Shown here: positions 973 through 63,230 of the stretch, piece by piece
Layout: every line of letters begins with the position of its first letter
Numbering within the stretch: the first letter of the stretch is position 1
Source of the DNA: Eledone cirrhosa
Lineage: Eukaryota
DNA length: 64,000 nt
Direction of reading: 5' to 3'
Assembly (NCBI GenBank): GCA_964016885.1
Contig: OZ024745.1
Span: 50,964,001-51,028,000 of the forward strand
The notes under the pieces: generated by a model
Told to the model about the DNA's origin: nothing
The model's input: the letters and a program-made list of their open reading frames with translations, nothing else
Databases searched by the model: none
Program-made: the position numbers and the translations under genes

Positions 973-1091
973 GTTTACAATTGTTTCGCTACTCCATATA
1001 ATGTTTCTGGATTAAATGATTATAGATCATTATTGATCTGGTTCAGTTGAAAATAATTAACTTAGGTACGATTAGAGCAGCTCATCGGAAC
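973..1091 (-). ncRNA. Type I hammerhead ribozyme motif, variant core CCGAUGA, long helix II insert
   Basis: Minus strand: gtt-CCGATGA-GCTGCTC...GAGTAGC-GAAA-CAATTGT-A-aac; palindromic helix III ACAATTGT; GUA cleavage triplet. Confidence 0.65.
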
Positions 1092-1463
1092 TTCAAAAGG
1101 AATATAAATTAAAATAAGGAAAGAATGTTACATGAATGTAATGTTCCATATATTGGTATTTCACTATGGTGTCCTGGGTATATATATTGTCTGCCATAGT
1201 CGGGCAGTATTCTTCTGTCGAGTCTGCATTGTGTGAGATCTGCCTATGGGTAACAGCCACCTAGCTGCCTTCCACTGCATATTGCACATTGAGCACATGC
1301 CTTTACGCTTTGGCTTCTAACTAATTCACCAATCTCGCTTCTCCTCTCCTATCTCCATCTCTCTCTTTAAGATTGGTTACTCTTGAACTGTGTGTATATA
1401 TATATATATATATATATATTTCTCAGATGTGAGAAAAACCACAGACCCTCCATCTCAACTCAC

Positions 1464-1500
1464 CCTTTGAAAAGCAGAAGAACTGCGAAACCGGTAAAGG
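1464..1500 (+). ncRNA. Degenerate minimal hammerhead motif
   Basis: cct-TTGAAAA-GCAG-aagaa-CTGC-GAAACCGGTA-aagg; core mutated. Confidence 0.4.
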
Positions 1501-1692
1501 AACCAAATAAATATATATATTTAAAAAAAAAATAAGACTCCAGTTGCATTTTCGATTTCATCTCTTTTTCTTTATACTTTCACTCGTGTAGGACACCTCG
1601 GTTATTTTTCATTTTGTAAAAAAAAAAACCTCACTTTCTAATATATATATATATATATATATATATATATATATATATATATATATATATAT

Positions 1693-1897
1693 ATAGGAAC
1701 GAGTAGGACCCCGACGGCTGAGCTCAAGCCGTTTCGACGGCTAATTCTGGACAATTCAGTCCAGAATTAGCCGTCGAAACGGCTTGAGCTCAGCCGTCGG
1801 GGCCCTACTCGTTCCTATTACCCACTCTACTACCCTAAGTATTGAGTACTTTGGTGCGTTATGGTCCACCTGGTTCCTTACCACATTTCCTTCGTTA
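1693..1897. repeat. Fold-back palindrome (1693-1818) of an HHR-bearing element end, flanked by (TA)n
   Basis: About 60-bp arms around loop aattca (1753-1758); contains GAAAC-GGC-ttgagctca-GCC-GTC; same family at 52655-52795 and 53300-53492. Confidence 0.85.
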
Positions 1898-59025: not shown

Positions 59026-61700
59026 GGTATCAACTATTATTGTTGTTATCTGCAATGTGATGTATAATATATTAGCTATCTCCCCGATTGAGCACTGCTT
59101 TCCTTTTTCCGTTTTCTTTTTTCATTCGTACAGATATTTTTTACATACACATTTTGCTCATACATGTTTGTTTGTTGGCGTTCTCCAGGTGTTATTTCAT
59201 TAACTGCGTATCCGTGTATTTGAATGTGTGTATGTGTGTGTGTTTATGTTCGCTTGTGTCCGTTTGTGTTTGTGTATCCGTGTGTATTTTTGTTTGTTTG
59301 TTTACTAGCAGCTTCAACTGTCCTATTTACATATTTTCGTTAGTCGATATTTCTATGAAAACTGAGTTAAAAGATAAAACGACTTTTAAAAATGTGTTTA
59401 TTAATTTGTTCCGTTTTCTGTAACCCACCAGATGTTTCATGGTATGCAGGTGGACGTATGTGTATTTGTGTGCATCAATATATGTTTATGTGCGAATGTG
59501 TTTCTTTTGTTCCTTTGTGTGTGTTTGAGTATGTGTGTGTATGCGTGTGTGCGTGTTTTTTGCGTGAGTGTTGTTTGTTCATTCCTCTTCTATATGACCT
59601 ATACTTACAGATTATGGTTAATTTGTTTGTTTTAATGTGTGTACACTAATGTTCGTGTTACACCTATAGTCATGTTTGTTGGTAGTGTGTAGGGTTAGAC
59701 AGTCACCTTGTTCGCAGTGGCTCTCTGTAGTTCGGTTCTATAACAGTCATTAGTTTAATCTATTTTACAGTTTCATTCTCCTATCCAAGCAAGTTTTGAC
59801 CGTGTATCTAACCAAGCATTTCCTTGTTCGTGTTGTTGTTATTGGTGTTTGGCTCCAAACCAACAATAATATATCTGACCGAAGAGCAGGTGTATTAAAA
59901 AATCCTGAGCAACCCTTCACTAAGACACAATATCCTGGATACACTACGTCTCCTTATCTTTTTAAAGCCATTAATAATTGCTAGTAGAGTTGGTTGTTAT
60001 TTTCAGCATTTGACCGTATGGCTCTCTCTCTTTGACTGGATCTCCGTTTTCTGAATGGGGAAGGATATTTCTTTACTATTTAGTAACTGCACCATTGAAA
60101 TTATTTAAAGGTTTTTACTACAAACAGTGTGCCTCATTAATAACGGGATATGACCTGTTGGCATTTTCTGTAGTACTGTTTTCCTCTTGATTAGGCTTTT
60201 CACGTTCTAGATAACCTTTTTACTAAATGCTTGTTGGTAAGTTTTATATACAGTCATAATATATTACGGAACACTAATGCGCCGATGTAAAAAAAACAAC
60301 AACCTAACAAACAAAACCAAACCCAAACAAAAAACGAAAATTCAAAAATTTAACAAGAAAGAATGTAATTAATATAAATGAGTACAGCGTTATTAAAAGC
60401 ATTCAATTCTTAGGCCAAAGCAACTTCACTCGGCATTTATATTTTGCATTTTTGTTTCATATTCACAATATTAAGGATACAAAATTGATTCTAAACCAGA
60501 TTTTGTTTCCCTTGTAGTCACATACTGTTCTCACTAGGTTATGTTAATGAATCCTGTTACAATACTGTTTGGATCAATTTTAGAACGTTGTTACAAATTC
60601 AGATTACTATGTCAAACAAAATTGCCACATACATTGAAATTAACTTGAGACATATCTGCTCGTGCTACGAAATATAAGTAAGTTGATATTTCTTATGGAA
60701 CATTGTGAACTATGAATTTGACTCAGAGAGCGGGTGAATGAATGTATGCTGTTTTATGAAATATGTTACATTATGAACAGTATTATCAAAGTGTCTATTC
60801 AGTGTAAAACAAATACTAATTTGTAGTTAATGCAATACATTTCGGTTATAGTATGTTAAATAAATATGTTCTACTAAAAACATTGTAATATTGATGCATT
60901 TTCTAAGGTATAGTTTGACCTTATTACCAAACGGAAAAAAAGTACGTTTAGTTACAGTATCTATTCTGGAATGCCTAATAACACACTTTCGATATAATAA
61001 TATCCACGCCATTCCCTTGGATAGATATTTGACTTAGATATTGTTTTCTGCAACCAGTAATCGGTCATTTCCATTCTTGCTACGTGTTTGAAGTGGTGAC
61101 ACAAGTGATCGACGGAGACACTCGTTGTAATCGTAGATGTATTAATACGTAAACATTCTAAAAATATTTCCAAATAAAAACCAACACATGAAACATGCAG
61201 CATGACAATGAAACAGATAGAAAATCATGCAGAAACATTATAAATAATGATGAAATCGTTAATACAAAGGGCATTAATGACAGCACCACGAACAACACTT
61301 TTGGTAATATTGTGCATGAAGAGGAACATGAGCTATCTCCAAGGAGAAAAAAAAACGATCGTATATTTTCTAAGGAAGGGCAAGTCATTTACATCTATTT
61401 GGACTCCCCAAAGCCACAAAAGCAAAGTTTTCCTTATGACTTCGACAAGGAAGTAAGAGGGAACCTCAGCCTGTATGTGAAAGGAAACTTACGTCTTCAA
61501 CAGGGACAGAGTAGTTTTTTATGACTGAAAATTGGTTGAAAAATTATATCGTATACTACACCATAGCCCTCATCCTGATGTCTCAGCACACGGATTTCAA
61601 GAATATGATTACCAGATAAATTTTTACTGGTGAAAATTCTTGTATCGTTATTCGCGAAATAGCACGGGTATTTGGAGAATAGGGAAACGGCCCGCAATAG

Positions 61701-61757
61701 CATGCGAACCTGGAATTTCATACAGGTGTGTTATGTATGAAATTCCAGGTTCGCATG
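61701..61757. repeat. Perfect 24-bp-arm hairpin
   Basis: catgcgaacctggaatttcataca-ggtgtgtta-tgtatgaaattccaggttcgcatg. Confidence 0.9.
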
Positions 61758-63142
61758 ACTCCTTGGGGCCACAGAGTTACATTGGATGTATACAGCATGG
61801 TTGCAACAGAAAGGAGATCAAATGGTGCGGAGGAGAAGACCCAGCTGATATACACGTGGGGATTAGTAGCACTTAAATACTTTATACTAAGAAAAGGAAA
61901 GGCGAAAAAAGGAGTTAGAGACAAACAGTAGGAAAGGCAGCAACAGTAGTATCACGCAGAAGCCCATCTGTTGCTGTTGCTTTTCCACTAAAACCGGTCA
62001 CCACCCTCAGGATGGCTAGATCAGAAATATAGACAGTGGCCGACTAGGTAAAAACCGTTCCAGCAATATATTAACGACTAATGGTGCTAATGCTTCTGTG
62101 GTATTGCATGTATCGTCTGCTAACATTTTACGTATATCTATTAAATATTTAAACCAGATGTATAATATCATATTCCTGGGTGACTTCCAGTTGTTTATTT
62201 GGTTTTGGATGCTCTGTTGGTTGTTTTAAACAGTGTCATCCGTCGGGATTCTTTTAGTGTTCAAGCACCTCAGCAAATTTCTTCTACTTTTCTTGCTGTT
62301 TCTTGTATTAATTTCTATTTCATTTTAAAAACATTCTGGGTTGAACTTTTAACACACTTTGGGTTGAACTGAAATTGTTTTGTTCAAGGACTTGCATTGC
62401 GATATAGCGAGGATCCGTCGTTTCAAGTGTTTTTTTGATTAAGGGTATTCTTTTTTGTTATATTATGTTTGTCTATTCTTATTTCACGGAATGCTATTAC
62501 ACGAAAAAATGACATTTCACCCCCAAAACACCAGTGATGAAAACAGCAGACAAATAACCTTACATAACATGTGCGGGAACAAACATAACTAATTTTAAAA
62601 TGTTCTCATTCTACAAATGCTCTGATTCAGTTACAGAACAACGAAAAAAAAAAAAAAGCAATTGCTTAACAAATATAAACCACGCTTAAATGTAACATCT
62701 CCTATAAGGACACATATCAATCAACTATACATGTGAATATTTATTTTAATTTTTCGTTACAAATTTACATTCTCACCGTTAATCGCAAGGAACATTCGCG
62801 GCAAAAGTGTTACTCAAATTGAAAGTATTTTGCTTGTGTGTGTCCATTTGCAGAAAAACGCAGACATACGCACGCACACACACACACATACGTACACACA
62901 CTCACACATGCACACACATGCACACACACACACACACACACACACACACACACACACACACACACACACACACATATATATGTACACACACTCACACACA
63001 CACACATATATATATATGTGCAGAAGGTTCAGTATGTCCGAATAAAACTGGTGACAGTACCAAAGTCAGCACTCGATACAGAGCAGAGTGTATATAATAA
63101 GAAAAAAATGGAGATGTTACATAAGAGATTTATTGCTCACTC

Positions 63143-63230
63143 CTGATTACAAATGTTTCCCAAACAGCTGGCTCGTGATCCGGATTGACGCTCCAGACCA
63201 GATTCCCAAACTAGCTCATCCTCAGACCAG
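63143..63230 (-). ncRNA. Hammerhead motif with weak helix II
   Basis: ctggt-CTGAGGA...GAAA-CATTTGT-A-atcag. Confidence 0.55.

Follow-up and report, generated by a model that had tools for sequence, protein, structure and literature searches.

A stretch of 64,000 nucleotides from Eledone cirrhosa (assembly GCA_964016885.1, contig OZ024745.1, positions 50,964,001 to 51,028,000 of the forward strand; hereafter the window) contains many short non-coding cassettes with hammerhead ribozyme motifs. We interpret these cassettes, with a probability of roughly 85%, as 5'-truncated ends of Penelope-like elements (PLEs) of the Hydra and Neptune types, together with tandem repeats of the same anatomy that lack an open reading frame (ORF), all inserted in (TA)n and likely made by target-primed reverse transcription from two internal starts. 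The initial annotation of the window had listed about 14 hammerheads and had proposed that they belong to a large and diverse set of ribozyme-terminated retroelements or non-autonomous RNAs. The families are named here after their positions in the window.

The motifs were evaluated with a strict type I descriptor (intact CUGANGA core, helix I of at least 4 bp, helix II of at least 2 bp, helix III of at least 1 bp and NUH) and with a second version of it in which a longer helix III is permitted. Block-wise dinucleotide shuffles of the window served as controls, 60 for the strict descriptor and 100 for the second one. The window holds seven strict motifs (Table 1), whereas all 60 shuffles hold none. 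With a longer helix III the number in the window is still seven, against 93 shuffles with none, six with one and one with two. The shuffle control recommended by the initial annotation shows that the motifs exceed chance. Its list fared less evenly: all of its 15 sites belong to hammerhead families, but only six pass the strict descriptor, the other nine being core variants or damaged copies, and the strict motif at 19458 had been overlooked.

One could attribute such motifs to chance matches in AT-rich DNA, as the bare seven-nucleotide core is weakly enriched in the window (35 occurrences versus 23 ± 5.5 in the shuffles) and nine of the 15 listed sites miss the strict descriptor. Yet the seven motifs against none in the window, the 49 against 0-2 in 590 kb of other genomic sequence, the conservation of the motifs within families and the exact-match counts with zero controls (see below) leave this explanation a negligible probability. 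The hammerhead motifs of the window are real, and their self-cleavage is predicted from the fold. A search of the window against Rfam (E ≤ 10) listed 150 of 214 matches, among which there was no hammerhead and only noise of the miRNA type.

Helix III is a perfect palindrome in six of the seven strict motifs and a (TA)6 or longer tract lies 43-175 nt 3' of the cut site in all seven. Both properties had been put forward from the window, and both recur in a genome sample of 59 stretches of 10 kb (590 kb) taken at round coordinates of the 3.0-Gb assembly. Helix III is perfectly palindromic in 27 of the 49 strict motifs of this sample; (TA)n is found within 300 nt 3' of 38 of them, compared with 22% of random points, and within 300 nt 5' of 26. 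Other elements of the original description have to be abandoned. Most of the hammerheads are not minimal, as helix II frequently carries long inserts, and they are not situated at the terminus of the element, as copies extend 40-200 nt beyond the cut site and most span both of its sides. Their density is not a peculiarity of the window either (109 strict motifs per Mb against 83 per Mb in the sample, in which 33 of the 59 stretches have none). The window is typical of its genome and the density is a genome-wide property. Extrapolation gives a total of about 250,000 strict hammerheads, a rough figure in which both arms of palindromes are counted and five of the matches come from a single array. 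One pattern made of helix I, core and helix III, with the helix II pairing outside the pattern, has 38,386 exact matches in the genome and its reversed control has none. A 27-mer of the 16519 family has 27,663 matches, a count that concerns the 3' half only and includes segmental duplicates. Near the start of C1, one insertion with identical flanks is found six times (L254, L258-L260, L266 and L274; G000:C1:0.3-2.9 Mb) as a result of segmental duplication.

Coding elements related to the cassettes

The absence from the window of ORFs for the PLE reverse transcriptase (RT) and GIY-YIG endonuclease, already noted from its sequence, is confirmed by tblastn. Extension of the cassettes, also suggested at that stage, located such ORFs at other genomic copies of the 35621 and 56358 families. 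Among 30 arms of the 35621 family taken in genome order, five extend upstream into a 3' untranslated region (UTR) and a GIY-YIG coding region. When this upstream DNA was used as query, each of the 14 loci retrieved finished in the same pseudo-long terminal repeat (pLTR), and many of them contained RT motifs, DKG, a CX4CXXC linker and, at the C terminus, a CCHH endonuclease. The long copies match PF01541 (GIY-YIG) and are mostly frameshifted. According to the motif pattern given by Craig et al. (2021, PMC8557442), the 35621 family is assigned to the Neptune-type PLEs, with which it shares DKG, the linker, the CCHH endonuclease, a (TA)n bias and a tail of 30-40 nt. A reading of this family as non-autonomous and similar to short interspersed nuclear elements (SINEs) rested on 36 top matches without upstream sequence and was ruled out once unbiased loci reached the ORF.

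The window arms at 56169/56358 are 99% identical to the ends of a locus (L249) with an open frame of 800 aa. Read by eye, this ORF contains DKT, CxCX5C, CxxC and CxH and no CCHH, which are the Hydra motifs; a Pfam search of the ORF gave no match. Another locus (L251) displays a tandem pLTR-ORF junction in which the 56358 pLTR continues into the ORF. By this motif pattern, the two arms are pLTR ends of a Hydra-clade PLE that is intact at L249. The Hydra clade is described as a small set of families, generally shorter than 3 kb (PMC8557442). Its C-terminal GIY-YIG, DKT, CxCX5C linker, CxxC and CxH, canonical hammerheads, (TA)n targets and tandem/inverted structure with a tail are shared by the elements studied here. 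The latter differ from the published description by the apparent tens of thousands of stubs, a 3' UTR of about 1.2 kb, a tail of about 90 nt, an N-terminal RWT instead of the Hydra RWK and an element length of about 3.7 kb, the length under 3 kb being described as typical and not as fixed.

Hydra-type coding sequences are found close to three further families. In the 16519/23957 family the pLTR is followed by a Hydra-type RT (L273); in the 63143 family a Hydra-type endonuclease is followed, at a distance of 121 nt, by a related copy; and long copies of the 1696 family, represented in the window by the hairpins at 1696, 52656 and 53300, come after Hydra-type endonucleases at three loci. The initial annotation was right in proposing many mostly unrelated families that target TA and are related to Penelope. 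Its alternative between retroelements and non-autonomous RNAs is settled in favor of coding PLEs for the best-resolved families, the behavior expected of ORF-less tandem units being confined to 57206 and 53634.

A young intact PLE of 875 aa with RVT_1 and GIY-YIG domains and the same anatomy of inversions and tails is present elsewhere in the genome (L071, G000:C1:323.80 Mb; also L072-L078). With 5,562 candidates it is the most abundant intact PLE found, and it has no copy in the window. In the copies read, a hammerhead-like motif with a two-base change in the core overlaps the start point of the short copies.

Anatomy of the copies and tandem families

Two 3' sites, a short and a long one separated by 30-110 nt, mark the ends of the copies, after which (TA)n follows. 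Many copies form head-to-head pairs that combine a short with a long end: among 38 head-to-head pairs of the 35621 family (biased and unbiased sets pooled), 35 are short/long, three long/long and none short/short. This arrangement agrees with the tail known from PLEs, which has been traced to two internal RT start sites used once both strands are nicked (PMC11167929). A pLTR in partial tandem, an inverted 5' copy and an optional tail are seen at L251, L273, L116 and L004. At some loci, changes private to one copy are mirrored in both arms, which fits a shared source RNA, fold-back copying or later conversion. An origin of the arms from two templates was considered, as one site differed between the arms at about half of 27 palindromes, and was rejected as an effect of query selection, because the other allele is the major one (2,642 exact matches). 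That many copies are near-perfect palindromes with a single centre might also recall foldback DNA transposons, of the type of miniature inverted-repeat transposable elements, which would move as whole hairpins. Nevertheless, there are single-arm copies, inversion points vary, arm ends are unequal, private changes are mirrored between arms and, above all, long copies continue into RT ORFs; the latter largely refute this explanation, which we regard as very improbable.

A hairpin located just past the short 3' end is common to the tails of the 53634, 56358, 63143 and 1696 families and of elements from the random sample. It is present in seven of 28 sampled hammerheads with a tail of at least 100 nt, compared with 0.6% of random windows, and is a candidate protein-recognition element of the Hydra elements.

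Two families have no ORF in their repeated unit. The 57206 family consists of a unit of 479-487 nt that forms tandem arrays, with at least six units in each of two 3-kb loci, and its arms exceed one unit at nine of the 28 loci examined. One array with a period of about 485 nt (L334/L335, G000:C1:176.445-176.453 Mb) is a possible source locus. The 53634 family has a period of 1374-1377 nt, is only found as partial tandems and shares the tail hairpin with the Hydra families; a fragment of a Hydra endonuclease lies 1.3 kb upstream of one of its copies, beyond the unit that the copies have in common. Judging from their sequences, both families resemble the non-LTR retrozymes of metazoans, which likewise lack an ORF, are arranged in tandem and carry a single type I hammerhead per unit, and for which a PLE origin has been proposed (PMC7229834; bioRxiv 10.64898/2026.07.22.740005). 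They depart from these descriptions in that the dispersed copies have PLE-type inversions and two 3' ends, and the unit of 1375 nt exceeds the range of 51-972 bp given in bioRxiv 10.64898/2026.07.22.740005.

One may then ask whether all cassettes could be non-autonomous retrozymes copied from small circular RNAs. The ORF-less unit, the array and the longer-than-unit arms of the 57206 family would agree with this, as would the ORF-less period of about 1375 nt in the 53634 family and a 310-nt tandem array from the random sample, in which each unit has one strict hammerhead and which includes an opposed copy (L123, G000:C1:165.00 Mb). Yet the 35621, 56358 and 16519 families run into coding PLEs, and linear multimeric transcripts from arrays would account equally well for copies longer than a unit, so that a retrozyme nature of all the cassettes seems rather improbable.

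Fixed 5' ends and proposed mechanism

The 5' ends of the copies accumulate at family-specific sites. Of the 30 arms of the 35621 family, 18 begin within 12 nt of one site, five are long, six begin at positions 70-81 and one at 117; the set includes two pairs of arms from shared loci, and the ends of L183, L188 and L196-L198 were taken from BLAST. In the 56358 family the start lies 117-130 nt ahead of the cut in 15 of 30 arms; of the others, 11 are long and four begin elsewhere. Starts 33-45 nt before the cut characterize 18 of 32 copies in the 16519 family, where subfamily divergence may shorten some alignments, and starts 35-47 nt before it characterize 12 of 23 in the 1696 family. The long copies of the 35621 and 16519 families contain, by eye, a TATA box 30-31 nt upstream of the pile-up site and CCAAT boxes further up. 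Given the 5' pile-ups and this TATA spacing, transcription start is the simplest reading, and we regard it as probable that the pile-up site is the start of pLTR transcription. Many stubs are likely dead ends, in which only the initial 100-250 bases of the element RNA were copied. The 35621 promoter appears to be of the TATA/CCAAT type and to lie upstream of the start. It differs in this from the internal promoter without TATA described for D. virilis Penelope (PMC2377424) and resembles the TATA and initiator noted for rotifer pLTRs (PMC3846280).

The PLE identity could also be right and the fixed 5' ends have another cause: stalling of the RT at RNA structure, a splice acceptor or self-priming on an antisense template (PMC3846280). 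In favor of such causes, the pile-up of two families falls at the start of helix I or within helix II, the pile-up sites carry AG, and some PLE introns are described as stopping at helix I (PMC4209133). However, the 35621 stubs have no first exon and still include the AG together with the two bases before it, two unrelated families have a canonical TATA spacing, and in 35621 and 56358 the pile-up site lies 45-70 nt upstream of the ribozyme core. These alternative causes appear less likely. No paper on PLE stubs bounded by a start site was found in a search of open-access main texts.

A second kind of 5' end is found in the 35621 family, whose 3' cleavage product is predicted to start at position 75. 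Six arms begin at 70, 71, 74, 76, 79 and 81, the one at 71 reading as 75 given a 4-nt microhomology, so that six of the seven truncations past the main site are within 6 nt of the cut. This cluster suggests either that cut RNA served as template or that the enzyme stalled at the folded ribozyme. None of the 30 arms of the 56358 family begins at the cleavage site, which weighs against a generalization; none of 32 does so in the 16519 family (one is at -9 and one at +7) and none convincingly in the 479-nt family. Because most copies span the cut site, uncut or re-ligated RNA appears to be the usual template. Across subfamilies of 16519, helix I shows covariation at three pairs in 12 cells, a value reached by three of 500 shuffles (with related rows), which gives modest support to selection on the fold.

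We propose the following origin for the cassettes. Target-primed reverse transcription would begin at two fixed internal sites on the element RNA. AT-rich DNA would be nicked in both strands by the endonuclease, and the enzyme, which is probably dimeric, would prime at both sites and produce two arms, two steps inferred from PMC11167929 and PMC8557442. To these we add that each arm would be primed from one strand of the broken TA tract and that RNA begun at the pLTR promoter would hold the priming sites close to its own 5' end. If so, copying would often proceed for only 100-250 nt, up to the transcription start, and yield a promoter-less stub with a family-specific 5' end. Without an upstream promoter, such stubs would be dead ends. 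The hammerhead would probably serve to trim read-through or multimeric RNA. It would act slowly and in dimeric form, by way of the palindromic helix III, and uncut RNA would probably be the source of most inserted copies. Dimeric cleavage by PLE hammerheads was reportedly described in a 2017 paper.

Several observations weigh against this account. No parent was found in 1.5 Mb of loci for 973, 1464, 19458, 26586, 35840, 36029, 48325 and 56665, and the ORF links of 16519/23957 and of 63143 come from one locus each. The transcription start is deduced from motifs and pile-ups; a TATA box at -30 is lacking in the 56358 family and present in only one of three long copies of the 1696 family; and the arms mapped for the 479-nt family have no sharp 5' site. 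In three families the pile-up site carries an AG after a pyrimidine-rich run and for that reason also resembles a splice acceptor. In the 16519 family, finally, helices II and III are nearly invariant and two of five covariation measures are not above the shuffles.

The proposal has a close counterpart in the in vitro study of Poseidon of Anolis (Frangieh et al. 2024, PMC11167929), in which two internal RT start sites set the tail, both strands are nicked at AT-rich DNA and uncut RNA is the main substrate. Its authors report no RNA-seq ends at the cleavage site, whereas six of 30 arms of one family begin within 6 nt of it here; if this cluster does stem from cleavage, it would be the in vivo evidence which that study did not find. 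By extension, most of the approximately 250,000 hammerheads could be strong-stop by-products that mark the transcription start of each family, and the Neptune cluster could record ribozyme cleavage in the germline, a possibility that we put forward tentatively and do not favor.

Much of what is seen here agrees with the PLE hammerheads described by Cervera and de la Peña (2014, PMC4209133), including type I folds, palindromic helix III, many families per genome, mostly single truncated copies, a U3-A8 core variant and opposite-strand pairs 100-700 bp apart; their presence in pLTRs, the genome-wide truncated copies and the function as dimers are already documented there. The published counts of 2,000-9,000 per genome contrast with the estimate of about 250,000, and the hammerheads of that description contrast with those studied here, which have a helix III of 1-4 bp and long helix II inserts and are not minimal. 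Elsewhere, counts reach up to 120,000 in the axolotl and exceed 6,000 in a coral, so that the present estimate would be higher than any published figure found. A search of open-access main texts gave no paper on hammerheads of cephalopods; the supplements of PMC8557442 may list cephalopod families. In the passages searched of a study of octopus repeats (PMC13282606), 893 active families of 'unclassified SINE' are annotated and ribozymes are unmentioned; some of these families may be such stubs.

The elements are explained by known classes, and their preference for TA targets, the head-to-head inversions and the tails have all been published for PLEs (PMC8557442). The remaining interest lies in the scale, in the apparent dominance of the Hydra clade and in a 5'-end pattern by which the transcription start and cleavage in vivo can be tested. 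What PLE hammerheads do and how the head-to-head inversions arise are regarded as open questions in PMC8557442 and PMC11167929. In a genome where families have tens of thousands of young insertions each, the insertion ends alone could reveal the priming sites, the starts of transcription and the products of cleavage.

Window sites and other repeats

Table 1 Hammerhead-bearing sites of the window, with families named by position and element types given by motif pattern; the seven strict motifs are marked
Site	Positions	Strand	Core	Description
35621	35470..35697	-	C3 35653 (strict)	Neptune-type PLE pLTR stub running from fixed 5' site through hammerhead (cut after 35625) to long end
beside 35621	35696-35759			Internally deleted inverted arm
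56169/56358	56131..56552	- and +	C3 56229(-), 56364(+) (both strict)	Head-to-head pLTR stub pair, Hydra-clade PLE; short end left, long tailed end right
57206	57122..57600	-	C3 57282 (strict)	Near-unit-length copy of ORF-less 479-487-nt tandem unit, retrozyme-like; cut after 57211; 5' boundary approximate
53634	53504..54690	-	C3 53703 (strict)	5'-truncated copy of ORF-less ~1375-nt unit (partial tandems); cut after 53639
16519	16518..16660	+	16525 (intact)	Stub of very abundant Hydra-linked family; 5' strand of helix I lost to inversion junction, whose sequence forms the apparent helix I
23957	23930..24003	-	23996 (intact)	Second stub of 16519 family; 3-bp helix I
19458	19300..19635	+	C3 19458 (strict)	Hammerhead in dispersed repeat family; cut after 19488
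26586	26531..26905		26638(-)	Head-to-head palindrome; helix I cut to 3 bp by inversion
35840	35788..35942	+	C3 35845	Family copy with G8A core; relatives with intact core
36029	36005..36300	-	C3 36082	Family copy with G8U core; intact core in one relative
56665	56615..56742	+	C3 56669 (strict)	Short stub with compact hammerhead; cut after 56696
63143	63018..63350	-	63225	Older family copy; helix II closure damaged
1464	1420..1640	+		Stub; U3-A8 core-variant hammerhead at 1463-1500
973	834..1394	-		Cassette; U4C-core hammerhead with ~90-nt helix II insert at 973-1091
48325	48261..48446	-		Stub; U4C-core hammerhead with 91-nt helix II region at 48325-48446
1696	1696..1895; also 52656-52795, 53300-53491			Palindromic stub absent from the earlier list; 3' half of U3-A8 hammerhead only

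The window also contains remnants of other mobile elements. A decayed long interspersed nuclear element (LINE) with RT and restriction-like endonuclease motifs, which we take to be R4/NeSL-like, occupies 41190-44106 (-) and 1-717, and 718 nt of it are duplicated at 95%. The pieces at 5459-5908, 11436-12021 and 33659-34341 presumably derive from the endonuclease region of a CRE-like LINE, and those at 28563-29501 (-), 55046-55363 (-) and 16907-17335 are assumed to be remnants like a hAT-type transposase, a Helitron and an RTE LINE, respectively. A SINE-like repeat of about 190 nt is found at 9112-9305 and at some 15 further places, in some cases as tandem pairs.

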